Positions 1,079 through 52,360 of a stretch of DNA of 64,000 bases are shown here, one piece after another (position 1 is the first letter of the stretch; every line of letters begins with the position of its first letter). Source of the stretch: Thermoleophilia bacterium (lineage in GTDB: Bacteria; Actinomycetota; Thermoleophilia; UBA2241). The stretch spans positions 2,571-66,570 of the forward strand of contig JAWKKE010000009.1 of assembly GCA_041393415.1 (NCBI GenBank). Reading direction: 5' to 3'. Under the pieces are notes generated by a model. It did not search any database and had not been told where the DNA came from. It was given only the letters and a program-made list of their open reading frames with translations. Made by a program: the position numbers and the translations under genes.

Positions 1079-1428
1079 GGGGCAAACCTCCACGGGGCGG
1101 ACTCCTTCACACGTTGCGCCGTCTGCACAGCACAGCGAGCCTCACTCCCGATCCTATCACCACGATCACAGAGGACACGGTATGTTCTCAACCACATTCC
1201 GTAGTCTCGCTGAGTCTCCGCGAGTCACAGCAAGGTCCAAGAACCGATGCCTTCGACGAGGTACGAACCTTCCCCTATGCGCAATGAACTCAGGGGCCTC
1301 GGCGCCGGCGCGCGAGCACGGCGGCGCGCCCCGGGAATCTCGTCCGCCCATAGACAATCAGCGCCTCGCGCCGCAAAATGGCCAGAGACGCGACCACATA
1401 CAGGGCAGCGGACAAAGGGGAGAACAGT

Positions 1429-3027: not shown

Positions 3028-3165
3028 CCGAAAGTGAACAGCCCGAAGCGATCTGAGTGAACAACGAAGGAGGGGGCGCGACCGCGCCCCCTCCTTCCAT
3101 CAGTACCCCAACACATGCCGGCGCCGCCCCCCGCGTCGCGGCGCTGCAAGCTGAAAGGACTCTGT

Positions 3166-28709: not shown

Positions 28710-29097
28710 CCGTAGCAAGCCGTAAGCCGGATCCTGTCGTGGGTGGCCATCCATCTAGGACGCTCGTTGCCGAACGCCTCATGCGACCGAAACCCGGGAG
28801 CCTCGGACGAGCAACCCTCAAACGCTCCCCTATTTGGTCTTGCACCGGGCGGGGCTTGCCGAGCCGGCCTGTCACCAGGACCGCTGGTGAGCTCTTACCT
28901 CACCGTTTCACCCTTACCCGCACCTCCGAAGAGGCCGCTGGCGGTCTGCTCTCTGTTGCGCTTTCCCTCGGGTTTCCCCGGCTGGACGTTATCCAGCGCC
29001 CTGCTCTGCGGTGTCCGGACTTTCCTCGGGCGGATGCCTCGCGGGCTCCGAAGAGCTCCGCGACGCGGCCCGCTCGCGACCACCTGGCTTGCCCGTG
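28710..29097 (-). ncRNA. rnpB: RNase P RNA, bacterial type A
   Basis: The minus strand contains the universal blocks GAGGAAAGUCCGGAC, ACAGAGAGCA, GGUAAGGGUGAAACGGUGAGGUAAGAGCUCACC, CAAGACCAAAUAGGGG, CUAGAUGGAUGG and ACAGGAUCCGGCUUA. P1 is formed by GCAAGCC (about 29092-29086) pairing with GGCUUGC (about 28721-28715). The ends are approximate to within about 10 nt. Confidence 0.9.
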
Positions 29098-29301
29098 CAG
29101 TCTACCCCGTGACGCCATCCGTGAACAGACAGTCGCGGCGCCGTCGACCGAGTCCAAGGCATGCCCAAGGTCGCGTGAGCGACATACGTCGTCCACGTGA
29201 ATCATGTTTGGCAGCAGAAGTGACGATACCCGCGCAGGAGACGGCACACCACGGGAGAAGCTCACACCGCGTGTCCGTGGTTGCGGAGAAGTACGCTCGC
29301 G

Positions 29302-29318
29302 ACCATACTGCGAATGGT
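29302..29318. promoter_or_regulatory. Candidate TetR operator upstream of the MMPL-tetR operon
   Basis: ACCATactgcgaATGGT is a 5-bp inverted repeat with a 7-nt spacer. It lies 31 nt upstream of the MMPL ATG. Confidence 0.25.
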
Positions 29319-29348
29319 ATTTGCAATCACGAGGATGATTCGCGCTTG

Positions 29349-32300
29349 ATGAAACGCCCGGGATTCACTCAGCGGCTCGCCATGGCTTGCGCCCACCGGC
29401 CTTGGCTGACGATCGCCGTATGGGTCGTCCTGCTCGTCGCCTGCGGCACCGTCTACCTACTGTACGGCGATGTCTTCACCTCCTCGGTGAAGTTCCTCAA
29501 CAACCCCGATTCCAAAGTCGCCGCCGACCTCGTCCGCGAGCACGGCGGCGAGCAGATGGCCATTGCCCAGGCGAGTGATGCCATCGGAGAACTCGCCGAT
29601 GGCATCACCAAAGCCAACAACGGCGCGGGCAAGCTGGCCGACGGATCGAAGCAGCTGGCCACCGGCACCAAGAAGCTCGAGAAGGGCCTCGACAAGCTCG
29701 CCGGCGGAGCCGGGGAACTGAGCAGCGGCCAAGCGCAGGCCAGCTCGGGGGCCGGCGCGCTCAGCGCCGGTCTCCAGGACGCTTCGACGGGCGCCGACAG
29801 CCTCAGCTCCGGGCTCGGGCAAGTAAGCGGCGCCACCGGCACGATGAGCTCCGGACTGGCGCAACTGGCAAGCGGCGGCGAAACCCTCGCCGCGGGCGCA
29901 GACGATGTCGCCAGCGGCGCCAGCAGCGTCGCCGATGGCGCCGACAAGATGGCCGCCGGCGTGAAGGACTCAGCGGCGGCGGCCGGACAGGTTGCCGGCG
30001 GAGCGGACGCCCTCTCCGGCCTCATCAACTCATACCTGCAGGCGCACCCCGAGGCCGCGGACGATCCGGTCTTCCAGCAGATCATCGCGACATCGGGACA
30101 AGTCGCCAACGGAGCCGCAGGGCTCGCTGCCGGCCTCGACCAGCTCAGCGGCGGCGCCGCATCTCTCGCTTCGGGAGCGCAAGCGCTCTCCACGGGTGCG
30201 TCAAAGCTCGCTACAGGCGCCCACAGTCTGAGTTCCGGTCTCGACAAGAGCGCCGGCGGCGCGCAGCAACTCGATCAGAGTCTCGGAAAGCTGGCCTCCG
30301 GCAGCTCCCAGCTGGCCAGCGGCGTCAGCAGCGCCGCCCAAGGCTCACAACAACTGGCAGGGGGAGCGCAAGAACTCGCGGCCGGCTCCGCGGAACTCGC
30401 CTCGGGAACACGCAGCGCGGCGGACGGCGCCGGTCAAGTAGCCAAGGGCTCCAAAGAGCTCAGCACCGGAGCCAACGCGCTCAATACCGGCCTCACGTCG
30501 GTGTCAGACGGCGCCAACCAGTTGAATGATGCCCTGTCGTCGATGGGCTCCCTCAACGACCACGACAAAGAGGTCGTCGTCATCCACCACGACACGCTCA
30601 CGACCGACGACCCGCTCTATAAGGCCAAGGTCGTCGAGGTGCGCGACGCCATCGCGGCGTTACCCGAAGAAGACGTCGTCAGTGTCATGAGCGCCTACGA
30701 TAAGGGGCTCCAGAAGGAGGCCCGCAAGGCGCTCATCTCCGACGACAAACACACCACGTTGATGATGGTTGAGCTCGCCAGCTCCTCCGACGAAGCCGCC
30801 AACCACGTCACCGGCGTGTACGACATCGTCACCGATGCCGACCGGCAGAACGGGTTTCGAGTCGCGCTCACCGGCGCAGCCGCTTTCGGACACGACGCGC
30901 AAGCGCTCGCCGAGCAGGACCTGCGCCGCGGCGAGGCCGTCGGGGTCCCGATCGCCCTCATCATCCTCGTAGCCGTCTTCGGCGCCATGGTCGCCGCCGG
31001 ACTGCCCCTCATCCTCAGCGTCTTCGCCATCGTCATCGGCCTCACCATAGCAACCGGCGTCGGTTACATCACCGACATCTCGGTCTTCGCGCTCAACATC
31101 CTCACGGCCGTCGCGCTCGCAGTGGGCATCGACTACAGCCTCTTCATCGTCTCGCGCTACCGCGAAGAGGTACGTCACGGCCACGATCGCCGTGAGGCAC
31201 TGGCCATCGCCGCCGCAACGGCCTCGAACGCGGTCTTCTTCAGCGGCATGACTGTGGTGCTCGCTCTGGGGGGCCTCTTCATCGTGCCGCTCTCTATCTT
31301 CACCAGCCTCGGCGTCGGTGCCATGAGTGCCGTGCTCGTCGCCGTCGCCGCGGCGCTCACGCTTCTGCCGGCCATCCTCACCCTGCTCGGCAGCAAAGTC
31401 GACGCCCTGCCCGTTCCGTACCTCAGCCGCTACACCAGCCACGAACACGGCGGACTGTGGGGCAAGGCCGCCCGATTCACCATGCGGCGGCCCGCAATCA
31501 GCCTCGCTCTCGGCACCATCGTGCTGCTCGCCATCGCCGCGCCGGCCTTGATGATGAAGAGCGGCGGCTTCAGCGCCTCCACCTTCCCCGACGACTTCAC
31601 CTCGAAGCAGGGCCTCGAGATCCTCAAGCAGTCCTTCCCGGCGGGGTTCAGCGAACCGGTCGATGTGGTCGTCAGCGGCGACCTCTCAGACGAGACAGTC
31701 ACCAACGCGCTTCAGGACTTCATCGACACGATCGACGAAGACGAGCGCTTCACGCTGACCGGCGTCGCGACCAGCGCGGACGGCCAAGTGGCCGCAATCA
31801 CGCTCGTGCAGGACGCCGAAGGGATGAGCGATCAGGCCAGGGCCGCGGTACTCGACTTGCGTGAGCGCATCATCCCCGCGGCCTTCGACGGCACGCCGGC
31901 GGTTGCCTACGTCGGCGGCGTGACGGCGCACGACATCGACAGCGTCAATATCATCGACGGCAACCTGCCGATCGTCATCGGCGTCGTCCTGACTCTGAGC
32001 CTCATTCTTCTGTTGCTCGCTTTCCGCTCGGTGCTCGTCGCGGTGACGGCGATCATCATGAACCTCCTCTCCGTTGCCGCCGCCTACGGCGCCCTCACGC
32101 TGCTCTTCCAGGAGGGCCTCGGCGCCCAACTGTTCGGCCTCGGCGACGTGAAGGTCATCGAGTCGTGGGTGCCGCTGGTGATGTTCTGCATCCTCTTCGG
32201 GCTCAGCATGGACTATCAAGTCTTCCTCCTGAGCCGCATTCGCGAGCGCTGGATGCAGACAGGCGACAGCTACGGCTCAGTCATCTTCGGCGTGCAATCC

Positions 32301-32603
32301 ACCGCCGGTATCATCACCGGCGCGGCGCTCATCATGATGGCCGTCTTCGTGGGTATGGGCAGCGGCCAGCTCATCATCCTGCAGGAGTTCGGCGTCGGTC
32401 TCGCGATCGCGGTCTTCCTGGACGCGTTCGTCGTGCGTGTCATCGTCGCACCGTCGATGATCTCGCTGCTCGGTCATCACTACTGGCACACGCCACGCTG
32501 GCTCGAGTGGCTGCCGCGCATCGACATCGAAGCCGCACCGGAGAGCTCGGCGGAGGACACGCCCGCCATCCAGGTCGCCGCGACGAGCGAGAGCCCGGGA
32601 TGA
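29349..32603 (+). CDS. MMPL-family (RND-related) membrane transporter with large heptad-repeat insertion
   Basis: Real start is ATG 29349 (MKRPGFTQRLAMACAHRPWLTIAVWVVLLVA) inside ORF 28743..32603; the upstream part of that ORF overlaps rnpB. Two MMPL-type 5-6 TM bundles are present (GLPLILSVFAIVIGL..., DYSLFIVSRYREE; DYQVFLLSRIRE). Confidence 0.85.
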   Translation: MKRPGFTQRLAMACAHRPWLTIAVWVVLLVACGTVYLLYGDVFTSSVKFLNNPDSKVAADLVREHGGEQMAIAQASDAIGELADGITKANNGAGKLADGSKQLATGTKKLEKGLDKLAGGAGELSSGQAQASSGAGALSAGLQDASTGADSLSSGLGQVSGATGTMSSGLAQLASGGETLAAGADDVASGASSVADGADKMAAGVKDSAAAAGQVAGGADALSGLINSYLQAHPEAADDPVFQQIIATSGQVANGAAGLAAGLDQLSGGAASLASGAQALSTGASKLATGAHSLSSGLDKSAGGAQQLDQSLGKLASGSSQLASGVSSAAQGSQQLAGGAQELAAGSAELASGTRSAADGAGQVAKGSKELSTGANALNTGLTSVSDGANQLNDALSSMGSLNDHDKEVVVIHHDTLTTDDPLYKAKVVEVRDAIAALPEEDVVSVMSAYDKGLQKEARKALISDDKHTTLMMVELASSSDEAANHVTGVYDIVTDADRQNGFRVALTGAAAFGHDAQALAEQDLRRGEAVGVPIALIILVAVFGAMVAAGLPLILSVFAIVIGLTIATGVGYITDISVFALNILTAVALAVGIDYSLFIVSRYREEVRHGHDRREALAIAAATASNAVFFSGMTVVLALGGLFIVPLSIFTSLGVGAMSAVLVAVAAALTLLPAILTLLGSKVDALPVPYLSRYTSHEHGGLWGKAARFTMRRPAISLALGTIVLLAIAAPALMMKSGGFSASTFPDDFTSKQGLEILKQSFPAGFSEPVDVVVSGDLSDETVTNALQDFIDTIDEDERFTLTGVATSADGQVAAITLVQDAEGMSDQARAAVLDLRERIIPAAFDGTPAVAYVGGVTAHDIDSVNIIDGNLPIVIGVVLTLSLILLLLAFRSVLVAVTAIIMNLLSVAAAYGALTLLFQEGLGAQLFGLGDVKVIESWVPLVMFCILFGLSMDYQVFLLSRIRERWMQTGDSYGSVIFGVQSTAGIITGAALIMMAVFVGMGSGQLIILQEFGVGLAIAVFLDAFVVRVIVAPSMISLLGHHYWHTPRWLEWLPRIDIEAAPESSAEDTPAIQVAATSESPG
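29589..30550 (+). repeat. About 45 consecutive xLxxGxx heptads inside the first extracytoplasmic loop of the MMPL protein
   Basis: Example run: KLADGSK QLATGTK KLEKGLD KLAGGAG ELSSGQA ... through QLNDALS. This is the same repeat type as in YhgE/Pip-like proteins (recalled as the X-X-X-Leu-X-X-Gly heptad repeat family). Confidence 0.8.
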
Positions 32604-34028: not shown

Positions 34029-34079
34029 GAGTCGCTCCTCAACCTCTACGTTCGCCGGTAGCGCGACGCCGGCGCACTT

Positions 34080-35663: not shown

Positions 35664-36565
35664 GACCCGGCCTCTTTGACGGCGTGGCCGCCGAACTCCT
35701 TGCGCAGCGCGGCCAGCACTTTGCCGCTAAACGTATCGTCCTGGCGCGAACGGAAGCGCATGAAGAGACTGGCGGCGATCGCCGGCATAGGCACGCTGTG
35801 AGCGATCGCCTGCTCAACCGTCCAGCGACCCTCGCCGGTGTCGTCGACGTAGCCGGTAATCGATTCGAGTCCCGGATCTCGAGCGAAAGCGCTCGCGGCA
35901 AGCTCCAGCAGCCATGAGCGCACCACGCTGCCGTTGTTCCAGAGGTCGGCAATCTTGGCCAGGTCGAGATCCCACTCGGTGGCTTCGAGCAGCTCGAACC
36001 CCTCGGCGTAGGCCTGCATAAGACCGTACTCAACCCCGTTATGGACCATCTTCACGAAGTGGCCGCTGCCGTGACCACCCATGTACTCGTAGCCGTGACC
36101 GGGTGGCGCCAGAGTGGCGAGCAGCGGCTCGATGTGGTCGTAGGCACTACGCTCGCCGCCGACCATCAGGCAGTAGCCGACCTCGAGACCCCAGACGCCC
36201 CCGCTGGTACCGGCGTCGAGGTAGCGGATGCCGTGTGGCGCCAGCGCGGCGCCGCGCTCGACGTCCAACTGGTAGGGCGAGTTGCCGCCGTCGACCAGAA
36301 TGTCGCCCGGCGCCAGTAGCGGCACGAGCGCGTCGATAACCTCCTGCGTGGGATCACCGTACGGCAGCATGAGCCAGATGACGCGCGGCGCCGCCAGGGC
36401 GGCCACCGCGTCGGTAAGCTCACGCACCGGTTCGGCGCCCTCGGACGCCAACGCCTCCGCCTTGGCGTACGTGCGGTTCCAGACGACGACGCGATGGCCG
36501 CCACGCAGCAAGCGGCGTGCCATGTTGGCGCCCATGCGCCCCAGGCCGAGCATCGCGATATCCAT
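35660..36565 (-). CDS. gnd: 6-phosphogluconate dehydrogenase (decarboxylating), short ~300-aa form
   Basis: Start is ATG 36565, after GAAGGAGGAAG (MDIAMLGLGRMGANMARRLL). The motifs GHFVKMVHNGVEYGLMQAYAEG are present. The upstream part of ORF 35660..36691 is an extension. Confidence 0.85.
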   Translation of the reverse strand: MDIAMLGLGRMGANMARRLLRGGHRVVVWNRTYAKAEALASEGAEPVRELTDAVAALAAPRVIWLMLPYGDPTQEVIDALVPLLAPGDILVDGGNSPYQLDVERGAALAPHGIRYLDAGTSGGVWGLEVGYCLMVGGERSAYDHIEPLLATLAPPGHGYEYMGGHGSGHFVKMVHNGVEYGLMQAYAEGFELLEATEWDLDLAKIADLWNNGSVVRSWLLELAASAFARDPGLESITGYVDDTGEGRWTVEQAIAHSVPMPAIAASLFMRFRSRQDDTFSGKVLAALRKEFGGHAVKEAGS

Positions 36566-36603
36566 GAGGCTTCCTCCTTCGCCGCGGAGCGCGCCTCGCC
36601 GCT

Positions 36604-38289
36604 CTACTCGGTGGCGGCGGCGATGAGGTCGGCGAGACGATCGAGACCGGCGGCCACGTCGTCTCCGAGACATACGCGCAGGGCGCGGCATTCGTGCGCC
36701 TGCAGGGCGGCGAGATCGCCGCGCGCCTGGGCGCGCTTGAGCACGCTGAAGCTGTACGGTTGATCAGGTATCTTCACGTCGCGTGGGTCATGTCCCACGA
36801 GCTGCAAGAAGTGGCCGCGGTTGGGCCCTCCCTTGTGATACTGACCGGTGGAGTGCAGGTAGCGCGGCCCGTACCCGAGCGTCGTCGCCACGCGCAGACG
36901 ATCGCGCAAGCGCAGGCGAGCGGACTGCAGCCGTTCCCAGATCGGGGCGGCCGGAGCTACATAGGCCTGCAGAGCGACGTAGTCGCCCGGCACCACCGCG
37001 GCGAAGAACTCGCGCAGCGCAGCCGGAAGCTCGTCGTCGCCCACGGGGAAGGCGCGCCGCGGACCGTCGCCGTCATCCGAGGCGGGCAGCTCCCCGTCGG
37101 CGGCATAGGCGCTCAGCAGTTTCGCCGTAACGTCCTTGCTCTCCTGAACATTCGGCTGGTCGAACGGATCGATACCGAGAACGAAGCCGGCGATGGCGGT
37201 GGCGAGCTCCCAGCGCAACATCTCGCCGGCGAGATCGTCCACCGCTGCCAATTCGTGCTCGAGCACGGGGTGCCCGGCGGCGGCGAGTTGCTCGAGGACT
37301 GCCGACGCGTACGGCACCCCGGCCACACGCACGACGCAGAAGACGCGGTCGGCAGCGTAGCTCTCGACGTCGTCCAGCGCCTCCAGATCGACGGGCAGGA
37401 TGCCCTTGCCCTCCTTGCCCGTGCTCTCGGCGACGAGTTGCTCGATCCAGACGCCGAGCGGCGCGAGCGGAGGAACGCAGACGAGCGTGAGCTTGTCGCG
37501 GCCGGCGGCGGCCAGCGCCCCCAGCGCCGCGCCCAATTGGAGCGCCGGGTTCTCGGCCGCCGGCACCTCAGCGGCGCAACTCCGGGCCATGGCCAAGGCA
37601 CCGTCGAGCAGACGCTCGAGATCGAGACCCAGCAGCGCCGCCGGCACAAGCCCAAAGAAGCTGAGGGCCGAGTAGCGGCCGCCGATGTCGCTCGCATTGA
37701 TGAACACGGCGCGGAAACCCTGCTCGACGGCGCGCCGCTCGAGGCTCGTGCCCTCATCAGTGATGGCGACGAAGTGCGCGCCCGCGTGATCGCCGCAGTG
37801 CTCCCTGAGGAGCGCGTAGAAGTAGTCGTGAAAACGCGCCGTCTCTGTGGTTCCGCCCGACTTGCTGGCGACAATGAAGAGCGTGCGATCGAGATCGATG
37901 GCGGCTTCGACCGCGTGCACCGCAGCCGGATCGGTGGAGTCGAGCACGTGCAGCTCGAGGCCATCGCCGCCGAGCACATCCCGGAAGACCTCGGGCGCTA
38001 GGCTGGAACCACCCATACCGAGCAGCACGGCGCTGCGAAAGCCCTCGGCGCGCACGTCGCCGACGAAGTCGCGCAGACCGTCGAGCTGCTCGCGCACGTC
38101 GTCGAAGACGGTGAGCCAACCGAGGGCGGCGGCGATGATCTCCTGATGTGCCGCCGCCTCCGGCTTCCAGAGCGACGTGTCGGCCGCCCACAGGCGCGCG
38201 ACGACGTCGTGTTCGTCGAGTCGACTCAGGCATGCCACGACTTCGGCACGCTGAGCCTCGGTGAGTCTCTGTCTGTCGAGATTAGGCAT
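36604..38289 (-). CDS. pgi: Glucose-6-phosphate isomerase (type found fused or adjacent to transaldolase)
   Basis: SIS-domain motifs are present (LGMGGSSLAPEV, IVASKSGGTTET, GGRYSALS). Confidence 0.8.
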   Translation of the reverse strand: MPNLDRQRLTEAQRAEVVACLSRLDEHDVVARLWAADTSLWKPEAAAHQEIIAAALGWLTVFDDVREQLDGLRDFVGDVRAEGFRSAVLLGMGGSSLAPEVFRDVLGGDGLELHVLDSTDPAAVHAVEAAIDLDRTLFIVASKSGGTTETARFHDYFYALLREHCGDHAGAHFVAITDEGTSLERRAVEQGFRAVFINASDIGGRYSALSFFGLVPAALLGLDLERLLDGALAMARSCAAEVPAAENPALQLGAALGALAAAGRDKLTLVCVPPLAPLGVWIEQLVAESTGKEGKGILPVDLEALDDVESYAADRVFCVVRVAGVPYASAVLEQLAAAGHPVLEHELAAVDDLAGEMLRWELATAIAGFVLGIDPFDQPNVQESKDVTAKLLSAYAADGELPASDDGDGPRRAFPVGDDELPAALREFFAAVVPGDYVALQAYVAPAAPIWERLQSARLRLRDRLRVATTLGYGPRYLHSTGQYHKGGPNRGHFLQLVGHDPRDVKIPDQPYSFSVLKRAQARGDLAALQAHECRALRVCLGDDVAAGLDRLADLIAAATE

Positions 38290-39433
38290 CGTCGCGCTCC
38301 AGCAGTTCGCGGCGCTTGGCGTCGATGATCGCGACTACACCGTCGAAGGACTTGACGAACAGATCGACGCCGTCGGCCTGCAGCCTGGCCCCGACGGCCT
38401 CAAGATCGATACCGAGCTGGCCCAAGTCGCGCAGCACACGATGGGCTTCGTCACCGTGCCGGTCGATCGTCGTTGCCAGCACACCGTGCTCACGGAAAGC
38501 CTTCCATGTCGCCTCCGGCAGCGTGTTGACGGTGTGCTCGCCGATGAGCTCGTCGACATAGAGCGTGTCCGGGTAGGCTGGATTCTTGGTGCTCGTGCTC
38601 GCCCAGAGCAGACGCTGAACCTTCGCGCCCGAGGCGGCGATGAGCTGCCAGTCGCGGCCGTTGAGGCCACTACGGAAACGCTCGTAGACGAACTTGCAGT
38701 TGGCCACGGCCGCCTTACCCTTGAGGCTCTGCAGACGCCGCCGCTCCGCCTCGTCGGCGGCGGCTGCGATGCGGTCGTCCAGCAGGGCGTCGACCATGGT
38801 ATCGACGCGTGAGACGAAGAAGCTCGCCACCGACGACGTCGCGCGCACCGTGCGATCGTGCTGCAGTCGGTACTCGAGCGCATCGCGATACGCACCCGCA
38901 ACCGCCTCGTACTGCGAGAGCGAGAAGAGCAGCGTGACGTTGATGTTGAGGCCGTCGCGCAGGCACTGATAGACGGCCGGGACGCATTCCTTAGTCCCGG
39001 GGATCTTGATCATCACGTTAGGCCGGTCCACGGCGGCGAAGACACGCTGTGCCTCGGCGACGGTCGCCTCGGCATCGTAGGCCAGATGGGGCGAGACCTC
39101 GATGGAGACGAAGCCGTCCTCGCCACCGCTGCTCATGTAGACCGGAGCGAGGATATCGCAGGCGGCACGCACGTCGGCCGTAGCCAGACGGTCGAAGATC
39201 TCGCTTGCGCTCAGCCCTTCGCGAGCGAGTTCGAGCACGTCCTTGTCGTAGGAACTGCCGGCGCCGATCGCCTTCTCGAAGATCGACGGATTGCTGGTGA
39301 CGCCGCCGAGGCCGTCCTTGTCGACCATCTTCTTGAGACCGCCACGCGAGACGAGCTCACGACTGATGTAGTCGAACCAGGGACTCTGGCCGAAGCGATG
39401 AAGCTGGGCGAGACGGCTCTCAGAGACGGGCAT
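38282..39433 (-). CDS. tal: Transaldolase
   Basis: Start is ATG 39433, after AAAGGAG. The sequence begins [25 protein letters not shown]. Also present are [19 protein letters not shown], and IKIPGT with the catalytic Lys. The upstream part of ORF 38282..39859 is an extension into tkt. Confidence 0.85.
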
Positions 39434-41477
39434 CGGGGATCGACACTCCTTTCGCCAGCAGGGCGTGCGCGTGTGCGTAGACGTTGTCGGCAGTGAAGCC
39501 GAACTGTTCGAAGAGGGTACCTGCGGGAGCCGAGGCGCCAAAGCGGTCGAGGCCGATGACATCACCGTCGAGGCCCACCCAGCGCTCCCAGCCGAAGGTG
39601 GCGGCCGCCTCGACCGCCAACCGGCGGCGGCAGGCGGCCGGCAGCACACTCTCGCGGTAGGCCGGGTCTTGATCCTGGAAGAGGCGCCAGGAGGCGAGAT
39701 TGACGACGCGCGAGCGCACGCCGTCGGCCGCGAGCCTCTCGTGGGCGTCCAGCGCGAGCTGCACTTCGCTGCCGCTGGCGAGCAGGATGACGTCGGGCAC
39801 GGCGCCGTCGCCGGAGTCGGCCAGCACGTAGCCGCCGCGGGCCACGCCGCTCGCAGCACCGTAGCGGGCGCGATCGATCACCGGCAGAGCCTGACGGGTG
39901 AGGATGAGCGCCACTGGGCCGTCTGACTTGGCGAGCGCGACCCTCCAAGCCTCGACCGTCTCGTTGGCGTCGGCCGGGCGCAACTCCGTCCAGCCCGGCG
40001 TTGACCGCAGTATCGCCAGGTGCTCAACCGGCTGGTGTGTCGGCCCGTCCTCGCCGAGCCCGATGCTGTCATGGGTGAGCACGTAAACAACCGGCTGCCC
40101 CATGAGCGCCGCCAGGCGCATCGACGGCCGCATGTAGTCGGCGAAGACGAAGAAGGTGGCGATGTACGGGCGTACACCGCCGTGCAACGCCATGCCGTTG
40201 GCGATCGCCGCCATACCGTGCTCGCGGACGCCGAAATGCAGGTTGCGGCCGACCGGCGTTTCGACCTGCTGCGCCGGCTCGCCCTTGATCCAGGTGTTGT
40301 TGGAGGGAGCGAGGTCGGCCGAGCCTCCCATCAGTGTGGGCAGGCAGGATGCCACGGCGTTGATGACCTGCCCCGAGGCAGCGCGTGTGGCGGGACCTTT
40401 GGCTTGAGCCTCGAAGACCGGCAAGTCGGCATCCCAGCCGTCTGGCAGCGCCCGCGTCCAGGCCGCATCCCACGCAGCCGCGCGGGCGCTGTCGACGTCG
40501 CGCCACGCTGCCAACTTCTGGCTCCAAGCAGCGTGCGCGGCGGCCCCGCGATCGCCGGCCGCCGCATACACAGCCCGCACGTCCGCGTCGACACAGAACG
40601 ACGGCTCGAGCGGGCAACCGAGGTTCTGCTTCGCCAGAGCCAGCTCTTCGCTGCCGAGCGGCTCGCCGTGCGCCTTGGACGTGTCTTGGCGATTGGGCGC
40701 ACCGAAGCCGATGTGCGTGCGCAGCGCGAGCAACGACGGCCGCTCGCACTCCGCCTTGGCGGCCTCGAGCGCCGCGTCGACGGCGGCGACATCGTTGCCG
40801 TCTGCGACGCGGAGCGTATGCCAGCCGTAGGCGGCAAAGCGCGCCACGACATCCTCGGTGAACGCCAGATCGGTGTCGCCGTCGATCGTGATGTGATTAT
40901 CATCGTAGAGAACGATCAGCTTGCCGAGTCCCTGGTGACCGGCAAAAGAGGCCGCCTCGGCCGACACGCCCTCCATGAGATCGCCGTCGCCGACAAGCAC
41001 GTACGTGAAGTGGTCCTGCACCGACGGACCGTCGCCGTTGAACGTCGCCGCCAGGAAACGCTCGGCCAGCGCCATCCCGACGGCGGTGGCAATCCCCTGC
41101 CCGAGTGGGCCAGTCGTCACTTCAACGCCCGGTGTGTGCCCGTACTCAGGGTGACCCGGCGTCTTGCTGCCCCATTGACGAAAGGCGCTCAGATCGTCGA
41201 CGCTGAGGTCGTAGCCGGTGAGGTGCAGCAACGAGTAGAGAAGCGCGCTGCCGTGCCCGGCGGAGAGCACGAAGCGGTCACGATCGGGCCAGGCGGGATC
41301 GTGCGGATCGAAGCGCAGATGCCGCGTGAACAGCGTGTAGGCCATCGCCGCAGCGCCCATCGGCAGGCCCGGATGTCCGGAGTTGGCCTGCTGCACGGCG
41401 TCGGCGGAGAGAAAGCGCAGCGTGTTGATACAGCGTTGCTCGAGACTCACATCGAGCGCGCCGGTGGGGTCGCTCAT
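39420..41477 (-). CDS. tkt: Transketolase
   Basis: Contains [21 protein letters not shown] (TPP motif), and [17 protein letters not shown]. Confidence 0.9.
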
Positions 41478-45904: not shown

Positions 45905-46435
45905 ATGATGAACACTGATCAGATCGTCATCACTCCGGTCGGTGTCGTGCGTAGCGACCAGAAGGAGCTCGTCTGGAGGCCGGAGTCGGGCGCGCTGTCA
46001 TGGAACGACCGTGTGCGCCGAGAGAGAGCGAGCGCAGAGGCGGTCTCACGAATCGACATCGATCCGGCGCTGGACGGCATCCTCGACGGCATCGACGAGT
46101 ACTCACACCTGGTCGTCCTGTGGTGGCCGGACAGGAATCAAGCAGCGTCCGGCCCGCGAGTGCGCGTGCGGCCGATGGGGCGTCAGGATCTGCCGCTCGT
46201 CGGCGTCTTCGCCACACGCAGTCCGATGCGACCCAACTCCATCCTCGCGACCGTCGTCACGCTCGTGCGGCGTCAAGGCCAGACGCTCGAGGTGAGGGGC
46301 CTCGACGCAGTCGACGGCACCCCCATTCTCGACATCAAGCCGCTGACGCCACACGACTGTCCTCCGGAAGAACGTCGTATACCGGAGTGGCTACAGCGCC
46401 TAGACCGCGAACGGGCAGCAGTAGACGACGAGTAG
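45905..46435 (+). CDS. trmO: TsaA/TrmO (YaeB)-family SAM-dependent methyltransferase
   Basis: Contains ITPVGVVRSD, DEYSHLVVLWW, GVFATRSPMRPNSILATVVTLV and LDAVDGTPILDIKPL. Confidence 0.75.
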   Translation: MMNTDQIVITPVGVVRSDQKELVWRPESGALSWNDRVRRERASAEAVSRIDIDPALDGILDGIDEYSHLVVLWWPDRNQAASGPRVRVRPMGRQDLPLVGVFATRSPMRPNSILATVVTLVRRQGQTLEVRGLDAVDGTPILDIKPLTPHDCPPEERRIPEWLQRLDRERAAVDDE

Positions 46436-46449
46436 AAGATGAGCGAATG

Positions 46450-46490
46450 CGCCGCGGGTGGTGAGGCACGATGCCCCACCGCCCGCGGCG
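46450..46490. terminator. Hairpin between the convergent trmO and peroxiredoxin genes
   Basis: CGCCGCGGG-TGGTG ... CCACC-G-CCCGCGGCG. There is a 9-bp perfect outer stem plus a 4-bp inner stem with one bulge. Confidence 0.45.
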
Positions 46491-46521
46491 TTCCTCACAC
46501 TGCGAAGCCGGGAGACGTGAC

Positions 46522-47130
46522 TTACTCGTCGGCCGGGCTCCACACCTCCCACACGCGACCCACGAGGTCCGGGCCGGGATGAAGCACCTTCTTACCCGGC
46601 TCCCAGCCAGACGGGGTCACCTCGGCGCCCTTGGTGGCGCGCACATGCTGGAATGCCTTGAGCTGACGGATCGTCTCCGCCACCTTGCGGCCCACAGGCG
46701 GTGTAAGAACCTCCATGGCCTGGACCACGCCGTCGGGATCGATGATGAATCGGCCGCGTACATCGACTCCCGCTTGCTCGTCGTACACGCCGAACGCCGT
46801 CCCCAGATGCCCCGCCGAGTCGGCGAGCATCGGGAACGGCACGCCGCCGTCGACCATCTTGGTGAGCTCGTTCTCGTTCCACATCTTGTGGACGAACTGG
46901 GAGTCAACGCTGACTGAGAGCACTTCTGCGTCCAGAGCCTGAAACTCGCTGTACTTCTCGGCGACCGCCGAGATCTCCGTAGGTCAGACGAAGGTGAAGT
47001 CGCCCGGGTAGAAGCACAGGACGACCCAACGCCCGAGCAGATCGGAGAGCTTGACCTGAGTGAAGGCGCCTTTGTGGTACGCAGGGGCGGCGAAGTCCGG
47101 CGCCGGACGACCCACCATGATGCTACTCAC
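46522..47130 (-). CDS. prxU: Peroxiredoxin (AhpC/Prx1 type) with in-frame TGA (46986-46984) at the peroxidatic-Cys codon; predicted selenocysteine
   Basis: Track ORFs 46984..47235 and 46522..46923 are contiguous in one frame: ...[54 protein letters not shown]... The start is GTG 47130, 5 nt after GAAGGAGGAGG, or ATG 47118. A SECIS-like hairpin follows the TGA. Confidence 0.75.
46956..46973 (-). promoter_or_regulatory. Candidate bacterial SECIS hairpin
   Basis: Minus strand reads UGA-CCUACGGAGA-UCUCGGC-GGUC-GCCGAGA. The stem is 7 bp with a GGUC loop starting 17 nt after the UGA. Confidence 0.6.
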
Positions 47131-47238
47131 GCTTGCCTCCTCCTTCACGCGCATCGTCGACTCGCCCTTCGCCGTCGGCTGCGCACCGACGACTGACCCA
47201 GTTGGACGAGCACAACCGATTGCCGGCTCCTCCATGTC

Positions 47239-48159
47239 TCACGCACCTCCTTGGCTTGGCTCGCTTTCATCGGACTCGGAATCAGCATAACAGTCCTCAT
47301 CGGCAGTTCCGCCGACCACAGCGACGACAACGTCGCTGAACGCCTGCGCCGCCGGCAAGTCCGTGCCCGAGAGCACGAACGGGTTGCCGCTGTCGCCTCC
47401 CTCTCCGATGCGCGGATCGAGCGGGATGCGGGCCACAAGCGGGACGTTCATCTCGCGCGCCAGCCTCTCCCCTCCCGGCCCCGGGAAGGCAGTGACCGAC
47501 GAGCCGCAGTGCGGACAGACGAGGTAGCTCATGTTCTCGACGATTCCGAGCACGGGCACCGAGAGCTGCCGGCAGAAGTTGATCGAGCGGCGCACGTCGG
47601 CGAGAGCGACGTCCTGCGGCGTCGTGATGACCAGGGCGCCGTACACGTCGGGCACAAGCTGGAGCACCGAGAGCGGCTCGTCGCCGGTGCCCGGCGGAAG
47701 ATCGATGATGAGGTAGTCGAGCTCGCCCCACTCGGTCTCGCCGAGCAGTCGCATGATCGACGAGTACTTGAGCGGGCCGCGCCAGATCACCGCGTCGTCG
47801 TCGCTACGCAGAAAGTACTTGATCGACATGACGGCGATTCCCTGACCGGCCGACACCGGCAGCATGCCCTCAGCGCCCGGCACAATATGCGCCGACTCGC
47901 ACCCGAGAAGCTGTGGCACACTGGGCCCGTGCAGATCCGCGTCGAGGATGCCGACGCGCAGACCCCGTCGCGCCAGAGCGACGGCGAGGTTGACGGCCAC
48001 CGTGCTCTTGCCCACGCCGCCTTTGCCGGAGAGGACGGCGATCGTACGTCCAATGTGCTCAAACCGGCGCTGTATCAGTTCCTCGCCCGAGGGTTGTTCC
48101 GCCGCGGGCTGAGCTTGAGCTGCGCGGCGATCGTCGTCGCCGGAATGTCGCTCGTTCAA
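47239..48159 (-). CDS. apbC: Mrp/NBP35 (ApbC)-family iron-sulfur cluster carrier ATPase
   Basis: Contains VLSGKGGVGKSTVAVNLAVALA (deviant Walker A), DLPPGTGD, and CPHCG (the cluster-bridging CxxC). TTG start at 48159 is preceded by GGAAGG. Confidence 0.85.
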   Translation of the reverse strand: MNERHSGDDDRRAAQAQPAAEQPSGEELIQRRFEHIGRTIAVLSGKGGVGKSTVAVNLAVALARRGLRVGILDADLHGPSVPQLLGCESAHIVPGAEGMLPVSAGQGIAVMSIKYFLRSDDDAVIWRGPLKYSSIMRLLGETEWGELDYLIIDLPPGTGDEPLSVLQLVPDVYGALVITTPQDVALADVRRSINFCRQLSVPVLGIVENMSYLVCPHCGSSVTAFPGPGGERLAREMNVPLVARIPLDPRIGEGGDSGNPFVLSGTDLPAAQAFSDVVVAVVGGTADEDCYADSESDESEPSQGGA

Positions 48160-48185
48160 TGGATCCTGCCTTCCCGATGAGTTCC

Positions 48186-48209
48186 TGCTACAGTATAGGG
48201 CATATGCCC
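48186..48209 (+). promoter_or_regulatory. Extended -10 (TGcTACAGT) followed by palindrome GGGCATATGCCC spanning the MBL start codon
   Basis: TGCTACAGT lies at 48186-48194. The palindrome lies at 48198-48209, and its central ATG (48204) is the predicted start. Confidence 0.45.
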
Positions 48210-48941
48210 ACTAGTGCCGCAGACGTCACGATCTTGTTCGACAACGAGGCGAGCACCCCCGGCCTTACGGCCCTGTGGGGGTTCGCGGCGCTGATCGAGA
48301 TCGGTGCGTTACGGATTCTGTTCGACACCGGCAGCAACGGCCGCGTGCTCTTGCGGAACATGGCCGCCCTGGGACTCCGGAGCGACGCGCTCGACATGCT
48401 CTTCCTCTCCCACGCCCACTGGGATCACAGCGGCGGCATCGACTCGGTGCTTGAGCTCAACGAACGCATCACCGTCGTACTGCACGACGGGTTCTCCTTG
48501 CACTTCATCGAGGATCTGCGCCGACTCTGCGGCGAGGTGATCGTCGTCGGCGCCGACCCGCAGGAACTGGCGCCCGGCGTCTTCAGCACTGGCAGACTCG
48601 ACGGTCCGCCGGCCGAGCACGGCATGGTGCTCGACGTCGGCGGCATCAGCGCGACCGTCGCTGGCTGTGCCCACCCGGGCGTCGAACGCATCGTGGCGAG
48701 CGGCGGCGCGCTCCTGGGGAGGCCGGTCGACTGGGCGATCGGCGGCTTTCATCTCCTCGCGACGGAACCGCCGGAAGTCGACCGGCGCATTCACAGATTG
48801 CGCGCCCTAGGTGTGACGAACGTGGTGCCGACGCATTGCACCGGTGAGGCGGCCCAGCACGCCTTTCGGGCCGCCTACGGCGAGCACTGCCACACCGGCG
48901 GCGTCGGTCGCCGCTTCGCGCTCGCCGCTCCACAACTCTGA
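48204..48941 (+). CDS. MBL-fold metallo-hydrolase (COG1237-like)
   Basis: Start is ATG 48204 (MPTSAADVTILFDNEA) inside ORF 48159..48941. The SHAHWDHSGG motif (HxHxDH) is present. The N-terminal xITxLxDN pattern is typical of this subfamily. Confidence 0.75.
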   Translation: MPTSAADVTILFDNEASTPGLTALWGFAALIEIGALRILFDTGSNGRVLLRNMAALGLRSDALDMLFLSHAHWDHSGGIDSVLELNERITVVLHDGFSLHFIEDLRRLCGEVIVVGADPQELAPGVFSTGRLDGPPAEHGMVLDVGGISATVAGCAHPGVERIVASGGALLGRPVDWAIGGFHLLATEPPEVDRRIHRLRALGVTNVVPTHCTGEAAQHAFRAAYGEHCHTGGVGRRFALAAPQL

Positions 48942-48975
48942 CCGCAGCCACGTCCTCGTACTCCCCTGTTCGCCC

Positions 48976-49015
48976 TTGACACTCCTCCTCAGGCTCGTAT
49001 ACTGAGCATATGCTC
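48976..49015 (+). promoter_or_regulatory. Near-consensus sigma-70 promoter TTGACA-16-TATACT abutting perfect palindrome GAGCATATGCTC
   Basis: TTGACA is at 48976-48981 and TATACT at 48998-49003. The palindrome is at 49004-49015. AAAGGAGG and ATG 49042 follow. Confidence 0.65.
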
Positions 49016-49041
49016 ATAATACAGACTGCAAAGGAGGATTC

Positions 49042-49401
49042 ATGCCTCATGGAGACAGCACTGGGCCCAGAGCCGCAGGACGCATGACAGGCCGCGGAGC
49101 AGGCTACTGTGGCGGCGGCAACGCGCCCGGCTACGAGAGTTCCCCCGGCGGCGGCCGGCGCGGCGGCGTTTCTCCCGAAGGAGTTTCGACGTGGCCGCGG
49201 CCACCGCAGTCGCTTCCTGGCCACCGGGCTGACCGGTTGGGAACGCGAGTCCGCGGCCCTGGTCCGCGTTCGATCGCTCCGCCGGCCACGCCGGACAGCT
49301 CTCACGAGCGCGATTGTCACCCTGCGAGCACACAAAACGAGCGTATCGAGCGGGCGCTCGGCGACATCCGTCAGCGCCTGGCGGACCTTGAGGCCAAGTG
49401 A
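49042..49401 (+). pseudogene. DUF5320-like gene with at least two internal frame changes
   Basis: The frame of ATG 49042 gives MPHGDSTGPRAAGRMTGRGAGYCGG, the family N-terminal motif, and the C-terminal coiled coil NERIERALGDIRQRLADLEAK. The central family motif FRRGRGHRSRFLATGLTGWER is encoded in the frame of ORF 49109..49486. Confidence 0.6.
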
Positions 49402-49900
49402 CGTACACCACAGCACCGTGGCTGACGGCGGCGGGAAGCCCAGCACAGCGACGCAGGACCTTCAGGTTCATCGGCGTCGCACCTGACCGGGATGCGCAGC
49501 ACCCCGGTGCAGCCCTTCTTTCGCCGCGGGCAACGCCGGACGTATCGAGATTCTGATGCGTTCGCCGATGGTCTCGACCGACGTCGACGGCTTCTCGCAC
49601 ATCCACGTCCTGTACTGGCTGCACAAGCGCCAAGCCCAGCAGCGCTGCACGCGTCGTCCCCTTCCTCGACACCGAGCCACACGGAATTCCGCGACGGTCG
49701 CCAAACCGGCCCAACGCCATCGGACTGAGCGTCCTACGCCCGTTGCGCGGCACGGGACCACGCTCGTCGTCGAAGACGTCGACATCCTGACGGCACGCCA
49801 GTGCTCGACATCAAGCCCTACTTCGCACGCCTGACGCCCGCCACGACGCGCGCAGCGGATGGGTCGACAATTGTCGACGAAGACGCACACCGTGGTCAGA
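49398..49900 (+). pseudogene. TsaA/YaeB-like gene fragmented by many frame changes
   Basis: Family motifs are spread over all three frames: FRFIGV, PVQP, DAFADGL, IEIL...DVDGFSHIHVLYWLHK, VVPFLDTEPHG, RRSPNRPNAIGLSVLR, TTLVVEDVDIL, LDIKPYF and RSGWVD. A possible GTG start at 49398 overlaps the preceding stop. The 3' end is approximate. Confidence 0.55.
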
Positions 49901-50063
49901 GCGCCTGGCAGGACACACGCCTGACGATCCAGACGTCACAGCGGTTCAGGCGCCCTGGCTGGCGCGCGTGGCGCGGCTCAGAGCGACACGCCGCACGCGA
50001 CGGGGCTCCCGCCACGTTTCTCCCACTCCGGGCCGCCGCTTGTACCGCGCCCACATTGGCGGC

Positions 50064-50075
50064 GAGCATATGCCC
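50064..50075. promoter_or_regulatory. Third copy of the cluster palindrome (GAGCATATGCCC)
   Basis: It lies 46 nt upstream of the GTG of the first MinD-type ATPase, whose RBS is AGAGAGGAGG. TTATAT follows it immediately. Confidence 0.4.
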
Positions 50076-50120
50076 CTTATATCGACCCCTACAGGCTTCA
50101 CGCAGAGAGGAGGTAGCGCA

Positions 50121-50987
50121 GTGCGCGTCGCACACAGCGGAAAGGGTGGCACCGGGAAGACGCTTCGGCGACGACCGCCGCTGACACTGCCGCGTGCAGG
50201 GACTGGCAGTCCAACTGCTCGACGCTGACGTCGAGGAGCCGAAACCGCCATCTCTCCTGCGCCCCAGGCCGACCGCACCGAGACGGTGCACGTCCCGATC
50301 CCTCATGGTCGACGAATCGCGCCGCAGCGGCTGCGGCGCTTGGTGCCGGCGTTTGCGCCTTTCGCGCACTTGCGGTCGTAGGGATCATCCGTGCTCGTGT
50401 TCCCCGAGATCTGTCACTCGTGTGGCGCCTGCGTGCGGTACTGCCCCGAACAGGCGCTGCATGAGGAGATGCCCCAATGGAGCCGTGTGGAGCATGCGAG
50501 CGCCAACGCCTGTGGCCGGCCGGTCTTCTCCAGTTGGTGACGGGCACGCTCGCGATCGGCGAGGCGAAAGCGGTACCTGTCACCAAGGCCGTCGTGGCGA
50601 CCGCCAGCGAAGACGCCGACGTGGTGACGCTCTCCTGGCACCTCGTGTCCGGCGATCGCAGCCGTGGCCGACGCCGACTTCGTCGTGCTCGTGACCGAGC
50701 CGACGCCGTTTGGGCCCACGATCTCGAACTGGCTGTAGAGATGGTCCGCGCGCCTGGGCTGTCGCGAAGCCGCTGTCAATCGCGTCGTGGCGGGCGACCA
50801 CAGGGTGCGGCAGCACTGTGCAGCCGAACGCCTCGAGATCGTCGCGGAGCTGTCGGACGACCGCCGCATCGAAGCCCATGCCCGCGGCCAACTCATGGTC
50901 GACGCCGTCCCCGCCCTGGAGCGGGAGCTGGCCACAGTTTGGGAGCGGATCGCGGCGGCGGCGGAACGCAAAGAGGTGCACGCATGA
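50121..50987 (+). pseudogene. MinD-superfamily P-loop ATPase with 2x[4Fe-4S] ferredoxin insert (COG1149-like), broken by at least nine frame changes
   Basis: Recognisable pieces, with frame given as coordinate mod 3:
- 50121-50162 (f0): VRVAHSGKGGTGKT
- 50203-50245 (f1): LAVQLLDADVEEP
- 50286-50303 (f0): VHVPIP
- 50305-50337 (f1): MVDESRRSGCGA
- about 50339-50383 (f2): GAGVCAFRALAVVG
- 50391-50468 (f0): VLVFPEICHSCGACVRYCPEQALHEE
- 50525-50635 (f2): LLQLVTGTLAIGEAKAVPVTKAV...DVVTLS
- 50631-50714 (f0): SPGTSCPAIAAVADADFVVLVTEPTPFG
- 50714-50761 (f2): AHDLELAVEMVRAPGL
- 50760-50987 (f0): C-terminus; its stop overlaps the next ATG. Confidence 0.65.
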
Positions 50988-51886
50988 GCGCCGTGCGCCA
51001 ACTCGTCGTCATCAGCGGAAAGGGAGGCACCGGGAAGACGAGCGTCGTGGGTGCGTTTGCGGCGCTGGCCGACGGAGCCGTCCTCGCCGACTGCGACGTC
51101 GACGCCGCCAACCTGCACCTCATCCTCGAGCCGCGATTGGGCGAGCCGCACGACTTCAGCGGCCGCAACCGCGCAATCATCGACCAGACTGCCTGCCGCG
51201 CCTGCGGTCGCTGTGCCGACATGTGCCGCTTCGACGCCGTCTCGGTGCGTGACGGGCAGTACGTCATCAACCCGCTGGCCTGCGAGGGCTGCGAATTCTG
51301 CCGCAGAGAGTGCCCCTGGAACGCCATACACATGGAGCCCGTGGTCAACGGCACCTGGATGGTCTCGGAGACGAGCTTCGGACCGCTGGTGCACGCGCGA
51401 CTCGGGATCGCGGAGGACAACTCCGGCAAGCTGGTGACACTGGTACGCCAGCAGGCGCAGGAGGTAGCCGAGCAGCGCGACCTCCCGCTTGTGATCGTCG
51501 ACGGCGCGCCCGGCATCGGCTGTCCGGTGATCGCGTCGCTCACCGGCGCCGACGTGGTACTCGCCGTCACCGAGCCCACCGTCTCCGGCCGTCACGACTT
51601 GGCACGCGTGCTCGAGGTCGTGCGGCGCTTCAAGCTGCCCTTCGGCGTCTGCGTCAACAAGGCAGACCTCAACCCGGAGATCAGCGAGCACATCGTCGCC
51701 GAGGCGGTGGAGCGCGGCGCACTGTTCGTGGCGCACGTCGGCTACGACGCTGCCGTTACACGGGCGCAGGTGGCCGGGCTCGACTTGGTGACCTACGGCG
51801 GCACCGCCGTGCAGGAGATCCGCATGCTCTGGGACTCGGTCGCCGCCGCACTGAACACCTCGCGGCGAAAGGCGGTCGACACGTGA
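50984..51886 (+). CDS. MinD-superfamily P-loop ATPase with 2x[4Fe-4S] ferredoxin insert (COG1149-like), intact
   Basis: Begins MSAVRQLVVISGKGGTGKTSV. Two CxxCxxCxxxC motifs are present (CRACGRCADMC, CEGCEFCRREC). Also contains DGAPGIGCPVIAS. The start overlaps the previous stop (ATGA). Confidence 0.85.
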   Translation: MSAVRQLVVISGKGGTGKTSVVGAFAALADGAVLADCDVDAANLHLILEPRLGEPHDFSGRNRAIIDQTACRACGRCADMCRFDAVSVRDGQYVINPLACEGCEFCRRECPWNAIHMEPVVNGTWMVSETSFGPLVHARLGIAEDNSGKLVTLVRQQAQEVAEQRDLPLVIVDGAPGIGCPVIASLTGADVVLAVTEPTVSGRHDLARVLEVVRRFKLPFGVCVNKADLNPEISEHIVAEAVERGALFVAHVGYDAAVTRAQVAGLDLVTYGGTAVQEIRMLWDSVAAALNTSRRKAVDT

Positions 51887-51994
51887 CGCCGCAGAACACG
51901 CACGACGAGGCTTGCCTCGCAGCTTGCCTCGCACCGTGCTGCACGAGGACACCGCGTTCTTGGCGGCGTCCGCAACAAGAGAGGAGCCATCATA

Positions 51995-52360
51995 GTGAAG
52001 ATCATCATCAGCGCTCAGGGAAACGATATCGACTCCCTGACTGATCCCAGATTCGGACGCTGTCGCTACCTCATCGCCGTCGAGACGACCAGCGGCGAGT
52101 GGCACGCGCACGACAACCAAGACAACGCGGCCGCGAGCGGTGGCGCCGGAGTGGAAGCCAGCAATCGCGTCGTATCGCTGGGCGCGGCGGCTGTGATTAC
52201 CGGGAATCTCGGTCCGAATGCGGCACGCGTACTGGACGCGGCGCACATCGCCGTCTATCGCGCCGAGAACGGCGCCACGGTGCGCGAGGCTGTGGCCGCG
52301 TTTGCCGCCGACGGCCTGGAGAGAATCGACGCGCCCACCGTCCAGGGACACTGGATGTGA
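51995..52360 (+). CDS. NifX/NifB-C-terminal-like (dinitrogenase FeMo-cofactor-binding domain family) protein
   Basis: GTG 51995 lies 8 nt after GAGAGGAG. Begins MKIIISAQGNDIDSLTDPRFGRCRYLIAV, with ITGNLGPNAARVL later. This is typical of the small NifX-like family. Confidence 0.75.
   Translation: MKIIISAQGNDIDSLTDPRFGRCRYLIAVETTSGEWHAHDNQDNAAASGGAGVEASNRVVSLGAAAVITGNLGPNAARVLDAAHIAVYRAENGATVREAVAAFAADGLERIDAPTVQGHWM

Follow-up and report, generated by a model that had tools for sequence, protein, structure and literature searches.

A prxU-type peroxiredoxin gene with a predicted selenocysteine codon in an uncultured Thermoleophilia bacterium

Does a TGA codon in the active site of a peroxiredoxin gene end the protein, or is it read as selenocysteine (Sec)? 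The question is raised by a minus-strand locus in a stretch of 64,000 nucleotides from the Thermoleophilia bacterium assembly GCA_041393415.1 (contig JAWKKE010000009.1, positions 2,571 to 66,570), the whole of which is called the window below. Comparison with its relatives led us to assign this locus to prxU, with a probability of about 0.92. The gene is predicted to encode a thioredoxin-dependent peroxiredoxin of the Prx1/AhpC type with Sec as the peroxidatic residue, and the UGA is predicted to be followed by a selenocysteine insertion sequence (SECIS) hairpin. A second question is how such an enzyme would be recycled when the usual resolving Cys is replaced by Thr. Three features of the gene bear on it: a Cys on an N-terminal arm, a Cys ten residues before the Sec and an internal ribosome-binding site.

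Sec peroxiredoxins with a TxxU motif form an experimentally verified family, known since 2001 and covered by current compilations of verified prokaryotic selenoproteins (PMC13188914). The first-pass annotation of this DNA had described them as known but rare. This understates their frequency: a survey of over 5200 genomes found them in 78 organisms (91 proteins) and ranked them seventh in frequency among bacterial selenoprotein families (PMC5029168). Actinobacteria are one of three selenoprotein-rich phyla (PMC1794560). The identification is thus that of a long-known and common bacterial selenoprotein family, and the gene in the window is an ordinary member of it.

The TGA codon and its conservation

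The two minus-strand open reading frames (ORFs) 46984..47235 and 46522..46923 share one frame, and TGA 46986-46984 is the only stop between them, as the first-pass annotation had reported. Reading through this codon gives 153 sense codons before TAA 46524-46522. The read-through motif is PGDFTFV-U-PTE, which agrees with the earlier proposal that the TGA takes the place of the peroxidatic Cys in the AhpC/Prx1 motif. The upper coordinate given in that annotation, 47130, cuts the gene; the ORF begins at ATG 47235 and has its own Shine-Dalgarno site.

Protein profile searches were run with Cys written at the stop position. With the NCBIfam equivalog NF040737 (peroxi_PrxU) the protein reached 396.3 bits, where the cut-off is 270. 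Residues 6-234 corresponded to profile positions 2-231 of 233, so that the N-terminal extension is included in the match. The next-best NCBIfam model, AhpC TIGR03137, gave 196 bits and stayed under its own cut-off of 272. Pfam matches were to AhpC-TSA (134 bits) and 1-cysPrx_C. The active-site motif P77-G-D-F-T81-F-V-U84 is of the PxxxTxxC type with Sec for Cys and is in agreement with the alignment to the structures 4fh8 and 7kj1. The conserved catalytic Arg residues, R160 and R162, were invariant across an alignment of 88 sequences.

The best matches among solved structures (E about 1e-46) were human Prx2 (1qmv, 7kj1), hookworm AcePrx-1 (4fh8) and Amphibacillus AhpC (1we0). The predicted protein has its domain, its PxxxTxxC motif and its conserved Arg in common with these typical 2-Cys peroxiredoxins, and it probably has their dimer/decamer architecture too. 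It differs from them in having Sec for the peroxidatic Cys, Thr for the resolving Cys, Cys for Phe at the position ten residues before the Sec (Sec-10), and an extra arm at the N-terminus.

A scan of one genome per species detected 80 related loci with 65-85% identity, giving 81 sequences together with the gene in the window. They came from Thermoleophilia, Coriobacteriia, Thermodesulfobacteriota, Acidobacteriota, Chloroflexota, Cloacimonadota, Leptospirales, Clostridia and other groups. TGA was present at the identical column in all 80 relatives (81 of 81 with the window), as FTFV-TGA-[PA]TE. The nearest relatives, which are 82-85% identical, shared both the TGA and the hairpin downstream of it.

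Alternation of TGA with a Cys codon at this column had been suggested as a check on the Sec reading, and it was found. Among the 120 nearest database proteins, the Sec column was W in 96 and C in 22. The DNA of five of the C-form orthologues carried genuine TGC or TGT codons in all five cases, set beside TGA in the 81 Sec forms. Such alternation of TGA and TGY at one column is what classically marks a Sec/Cys pair. The W residues are probably the result of gene callers reading through the TGA as Trp. Trp at the Sec column of 96 out of 120 homologues looks like a systematic mistranslation of the Sec-peroxiredoxin family in metagenome-derived protein sets.

Purifying selection on the codons that follow the TGA is strong. 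In comparisons with the four closest relatives (L001-L004), the ratio of non-synonymous to synonymous substitution rates (dN/dS) over the 150 codons after the TGA was 0.08-0.13 at dS of about 0.8-1.3. The 44 codons before the TGA gave 0.06-0.16, which is the same level. The earlier statement that sequence of coding quality continues beyond the TGA is borne out by these values of about 0.1.

The hairpin after the UGA and the decoding of the codon

The hairpin was found as first described: a spacer of 10 nt after the UGA (CCUACGGAGA) is followed by UCUCGGC, the loop GGUC and GCCGAGA, which form a perfect stem of 7 bp. In a gapless alignment of the 81 sequences (A1), the stem positions paired in 96.5% of cells, and none of 500 shuffles matched the observed pairing or covariation. 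As a control, sliding the stem partners lowered pairing to 33-75%. Compensatory double changes were detected in four of the seven stem pairs, with 117 double-change cells in total. One column pair of the stem was UA in 43 sequences, GC in 21, CG in nine and AU in five, while another was GC in 43, AU in 30, UA in four and CG in three. RNAalifold independently predicted the same helix.

The loop followed the pattern RGUY across the family, as GGUC in 29 sequences and AGUU in 50, and its G34 and U35 were invariant in the 81 sequences. The first and last bases of the tetraloop (A1 columns 33 and 36; window positions 46966 and 46963) covaried, with A..U in 50 sequences, G..C in 29 and two exceptions. 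These outer bases behave like a closing pair around the invariant GU.

The Cys orthologues provided a natural control. At least six of the seven stem pairs were formed in 79 of the 81 Sec forms, compared with just three to five in the five Cys forms. The latter had also lost the RGUY loop, and the hairpin was degraded even where the encoded peptide remained SAVA. Covariation of the hairpin in Sec forms together with its decay in Cys forms indicates a constraint at the RNA level that is tied to the UGA, that is, a SECIS element.

In bacteria, a SECIS element is a stem-loop inside the coding sequence that begins about 11 nt downstream of the UGA. Such elements commonly have a small apical loop in which a guanosine is conserved (PMC1088965). 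The first-pass annotation had noted a likeness to the SECIS of Escherichia coli fdhF, and this was tested with an fdhF sequence verified in 5419 of 5426 E. coli genomes. Both hairpins lie in the coding sequence just after the UGA and carry an apical GGUC tetraloop whose G and U are nearly equidistant from the codon, the loop occupying nt 22-25 from the U of the UGA in fdhF and nt 21-24 here. The fdhF element differs in having a long lower stem that reaches the UGA; the hairpin in the window has no such stem and consists of the perfect 7-bp helix only.

Some observations weigh against a functional SECIS and against Sec insertion in this organism. The hairpin in the window lacks the bulged U of the E. 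coli fdhF element. Its stability on the single sequence was no better than that of dinucleotide shuffles (z = -0.32 and -0.18, in a GC-rich context), so the single-sequence fold is no evidence by itself and we relied on the comparative covariation instead. No tRNA and no selA, selB or selD domain was detected within the 64-kb window, in which about 40 ORFs were scanned. In addition, Rfam gave no match at the hairpin, its sole match in the window being RNase P, and a tblastn search with E. coli SelD as query gave no match either in the window or in the flanking sequence of 85 loci. In favour of the Sec reading, one relative, a Spirochaetales metagenome-assembled genome (MAG), carries a tRNA-SeC with the anticodon TCA about 860 nt upstream of prxU (L031, 239-328, minus strand).

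Other explanations of the TGA have to be weighed with these points in mind. One base change turns TGC into TGA. If it had arisen in an ordinary Cys peroxiredoxin by nonsense mutation, or through an error of sequencing or assembly, the locus would be a pseudogene or a misread gene. A hairpin that is not significantly stable on one sequence and the lack of Sec machinery in the window are both compatible with this. However, the same TGA recurs in 80 of 80 independent relatives, among them the closest ones, which share the hairpin as well; the hairpin covaries, and the 153 codons after the TGA are intact and constrained. An error or nonsense mutation is accordingly very improbable. Loss of the Sec machinery in the lineage would lead to a related outcome, in which the UGA is weakly suppressed by a near-cognate or Cys-charged tRNA and the gene gives a weakly expressed Cys or Trp enzyme or is decaying. 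Sec genes were seen nowhere in the 64 kb of the host genome under study, and selenoprotein loss events are known in Actinobacteria (PMC1794560). Yet the SECIS of the window is intact, with seven of seven pairs and the GGUC loop, the downstream sequence is strongly constrained, and the state of the hairpin in the Cys orthologues shows that it degenerates when there is no further need for it. We regard such a loss as improbable, if slightly less so than a mutation or an error.

The host might also use genetic code 4 or 25 and read every UGA as a standard amino acid, which would put Trp or Gly at this position. The 96 database homologues with W at the Sec column would fit such a reassignment, but these are probably read-throughs of the same TGA by gene callers, and an enzyme with Trp or Gly as its peroxidatic residue would have no activity. 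Other genes of the window use TGA as a normal stop: in MttB, Mrp, transketolase and MMPL the Pfam match runs to just before a TGA, which all but excludes its genome-wide reassignment. Moreover, no conserved genes of the window were seen with an in-frame TGA at Trp or Gly columns, and the genome is actinobacterial with 67% G+C. Reassignment is the least credible of the three alternatives.

Insertion of Sec at codon 84 is therefore the reading that we adopt. The hairpin would present its GU-containing tetraloop about 18-19 nt downstream of UGA-84, which corresponds to the geometry of bacterial SECIS elements. By analogy with the established biology of Sec in bacteria, SelB carrying Sec-tRNA(Sec) would bind the hairpin and insert Sec instead of allowing termination. 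The intact UGA and SECIS and the constraint on the gene suggest that the host has the Sec-decoding trait, which is accordingly very probable in an uncultured Thermoleophilia lineage. A standard gene caller would split or truncate prxU, and the present finding corrects the annotation.

Cysteines, the N-terminal arm and two possible isoforms

The position of the usual resolving Cys reads AEVTPSGW, as had been pointed out before. Aligned to GEVCPAGW of solved 2-Cys peroxiredoxins, it has Thr in place of Cys. Thr occupies this column in 73 of the 81 family members, and the C-terminal VCP motif that is the criterion for typical 2-Cys peroxiredoxins is absent. The first-pass annotation had concluded that the chemistry would rest on the single Sec. 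This was not supported, as two other Cys residues are conserved: Cys8 is present in 77 of the 81 sequences, and the Sec-10 position, Cys74 in the motif VVLCFYPGD, is Cys in all 81. Solved 2-Cys peroxiredoxins and ordinary Prx1 proteins have Phe at the latter position. Cys74 is a candidate resolving residue on the basis of this conservation.

Cys8 lies on a conserved N-terminal arm. The arm of the window gene contains GCARPTG, an instance of the general motif C-x-[RK]-P-x-x-G that includes Cys8, and it is followed by a variable, low-complexity linker of about 20 residues. The motif is conserved across phyla, typically as VGCARPTGGPVGE, and takes the form C-V-x-P-A-x-G-P in Chloroflexota. The arm with its Cys occurs in Sec and Cys forms alike. 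In 88 long-form homologues, a set chosen for a Cys in the first 25 residues, Cys8 fell in a single column that was invariant. The entropies over the arm motif were 0.75, 0.68 and 1.73 bits at the three codon positions, a pattern that indicates selection on the protein. A Shine-Dalgarno site and a start codon were identified upstream of the arm Cys in 50 of 53 relatives.

The chains of the nearest solved peroxiredoxins cover none of the first 33 residues or so, in which the arm is included. We also considered docking of the arm onto the core in an AlphaFold2 model, and no site could be assigned because confidence in the arm was low.

A second start appears to be encoded between the arm and the peroxiredoxin domain. 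In the window, the Shine-Dalgarno-like motif AAGGAGGAGG sits 5 nt before GTG 47130, and the in-frame ATG 47118 follows downstream. In 61 of 72 relatives, an internal in-frame ATG where the peroxiredoxin domain begins has a strong Shine-Dalgarno sequence (AAGGAGG or GGAGG) 6-10 nt ahead of it, while the same motif occurred at 6.4% of in-frame positions elsewhere in these genes. The residues encoded by the internal motif vary (KEE, KEV, QEV, MEE, GGG) while GGAGG persists. The Glu codon GAG made up 76% of Glu codons in the stretch of the internal motif compared with 44% elsewhere (Fisher p = 4e-9, a value that is indicative only because the sequences are related). The internal motif was also found in the five Cys forms (L081-L085), and in the arm-less relative L046 the internal site is the sole start.

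Position 47130, the upper coordinate of the first-pass annotation, is thus probably a real second start. Two in-frame ribosome-binding sites suggest that both a long and a short form are made, and as judged from the sequence prxU probably gives a long form of 237 residues and a short, arm-less form of about 198-202 residues. For the PrxU of Eubacterium acidaminophilum, a length of 203 residues and a Sec at position 47 (Sec47) are reported, and this would correspond to the short form. If two isoforms are indeed made, this could determine what share of the subunits in the oligomer carries the arm.

The following scheme may be proposed for the enzyme. In the PxxxTxxU active site, Sec84 would reduce peroxide through its selenolate and be converted to a selenenic acid. 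One of the two family-specific Cys residues, Cys8 on the flexible arm or the invariant Cys74, would then resolve the selenenic acid to a selenenylsulfide, which thioredoxin, the presumed reductant, would reduce. The arm Cys, the Cys at Sec-10 and the internal ribosome-binding site thus bear on the recycling of a Sec peroxiredoxin without the canonical resolving Cys.

Two results speak against the part assigned to the arm. The arm-less members L046, L068 and L079 have Thr at the canonical C-terminal site of the resolving Cys. As they have not regained the canonical Cys, Cys74, or direct reduction by thioredoxin, stays in play. In the AlphaFold2 model of a Cys orthologue with 80% identity, the predicted local distance difference test score was above 90 for the core, about 50-62 for the arm and below 50 for the linker; such values fit a flexible tether, but a docking site cannot be claimed from them. 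A complementary distribution of the arm and the canonical resolving Cys was considered as well and did not hold, since the arm is also found in the three members with the canonical Cys, and Thr stands at that site in the three arm-less ones.

It is possible, though we give it less than even odds, that the PrxU-type enzymes represent a distinct mechanistic class. In such a class the resolving Cys would be shifted from the C-terminal tail to an N-terminal arm (C-x-[RK]-P-x-x-G), tethered by some 20 disordered linker residues, or to the invariant Cys at Sec-10, and two isoforms would be made per gene from tandem in-frame ribosome-binding sites. The open literature searched contained no description of the arm, of Cys74, of the dual start or of a PrxU mechanism; the NF040737 profile already spans the arm.

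The closest known system is the PrxU of Eubacterium (Peptoclostridium) acidaminophilum (Sohling et al., 2001, as cited in PMC13188914). Shared with it are the Prx1/AhpC fold, Sec in TxxU, the lack of a canonical C-terminal resolving Cys and a SECIS directly after the UGA. The gene described here differs in its host, which is a high-G+C actinobacterium of the Thermoleophilia and not a clostridium, in its coupling to an Mrp gene, and in clearly encoding a long form whose N-terminal arm carries a Cys.

A resolving Cys close to the N-terminus has a counterpart in mammalian MsrB1 (selenoprotein R), where the resolving Cys lies near this end of the protein. The Sec form of MsrB1 depends on its unique resolving Cys, unlike the Cys homologues (PMC1278935). 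Fold and substrate of MsrB1 are unrelated to those of the prxU product, and the likeness is one of analogy only.

Gene neighbourhood and other features of the window

The coordinates of the features described here are collected in Table 1. The upstream neighbour of prxU is an Mrp/NBP35-type P-loop NTPase, an assignment of the first-pass annotation with which the PF10609 match (319 bits) agrees. The arrangement of the two genes suggests that they are probably co-transcribed. The gene types around prxU (45905-52360) comprise Mrp/NBP35, two CbiA/MinD-ferredoxin genes, Nitro_FeMo-Co, a TrmO-like gene and a metallo-beta-lactamase-fold gene. In three loci from Chloroflexota MAGs (L062, L070, L071), prxU is surrounded by the same gene types in one co-oriented cluster. 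The neighbours of this Mrp cluster were not shared by the closest relatives, L001-L004. That prxU in such a cluster protects the assembly of oxygen-sensitive metal clusters is only a guess.

Table 1. Positions of prxU, its elements and its neighbours in the window
Feature	Coordinates	Strand	Remarks
prxU coding sequence, long form	46522..47235	-	237 residues, ATG 47235 to TAA 46524-46522; predicted Sec is codon 84; from translation and hidden Markov model match
UGA, predicted Sec codon (peroxidatic residue)	46984..46986	-	TGA in 81/81 sequences; TGC/TGT in five Cys orthologues
SECIS hairpin (predicted)	46956..46973	-	stem 46973-46967 with 46962-46956; loop GGUC 46966-46963; from covariation and RNAalifold
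Cys74 codon (Sec-10, in VVLCFYPGD)	47014..47016	-	Cys in 81/81 sequences; family-specific
Conserved N-terminal arm, 17 residues	47185..47235	-	Cys8 codon 47214-47212; variable linker to about 47119; arm in 77/81
Shine-Dalgarno AAGGAGG for long-form start	47246..47252	-	within the end of the Mrp gene; read from the sequence
Internal Shine-Dalgarno-like motif AAGGAGGAGG and starts	47116..47145	-	motif 47145-47136; GTG 47130-47128; ATG 47118-47116; arm-less form about 198-202 residues
Mrp/NBP35-type Fe-S carrier ATPase gene	47239..48159	-	TGA stop 47241-47239, 3 nt before the prxU ATG; PF10609
Metallo-beta-lactamase-fold gene	48159-48941		prxU neighbourhood
CbiA/MinD gene with two 4Fe-4S motifs	ends 51886		prxU neighbourhood
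NifX/NifB-type Nitro_FeMo-Co gene	about 52010-52360		prxU neighbourhood
TrmO-like gene	45905-46435		convergent with prxU
Inverted repeat, 19-nt arms, 89% complementary, 3-nt loop	46450..46490	.	between the convergent prxU and TrmO-like genes

The inverted repeat downstream of prxU is a possible two-way terminator that has no T tract. It was not reported by a scan for consensus terminators.

A second selenoprotein candidate was considered in the same neighbourhood, where the TGA of the CbiA/Fer4 ORF that ends at 51886 is followed by an in-frame NifX-like ORF (50477-52360, plus strand). This TGA is an ordinary stop, and the downstream ORF has a separate start.

Other parts of the window gave some additional observations. 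A bacterial RNase P RNA of class A (271 bits) was identified at 28712-29091 on the minus strand. The plus-strand ORF 28743..32603 overlaps it, so the MMPL-family gene encoded there must start further downstream. A pentose-phosphate operon at 33279-41477 on the minus strand encodes transketolase, transaldolase, a PGI-like protein, a 6-phosphogluconate dehydrogenase-like protein, glucose-6-phosphate dehydrogenase and 6-phosphogluconolactonase. Its transketolase puts the host among uncultured Thermoleophilia, with 80-81% identity to the nearest MAGs. An MttB-family methyltransferase gene (PF06253, 248 bits) was located at 1378-4581 on the plus strand, after a gene for a family-5 solute-binding protein, and it contains no in-frame stop. 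It resembles the non-pyrrolysine MttB homologues, for which a quaternary amine may be the substrate.

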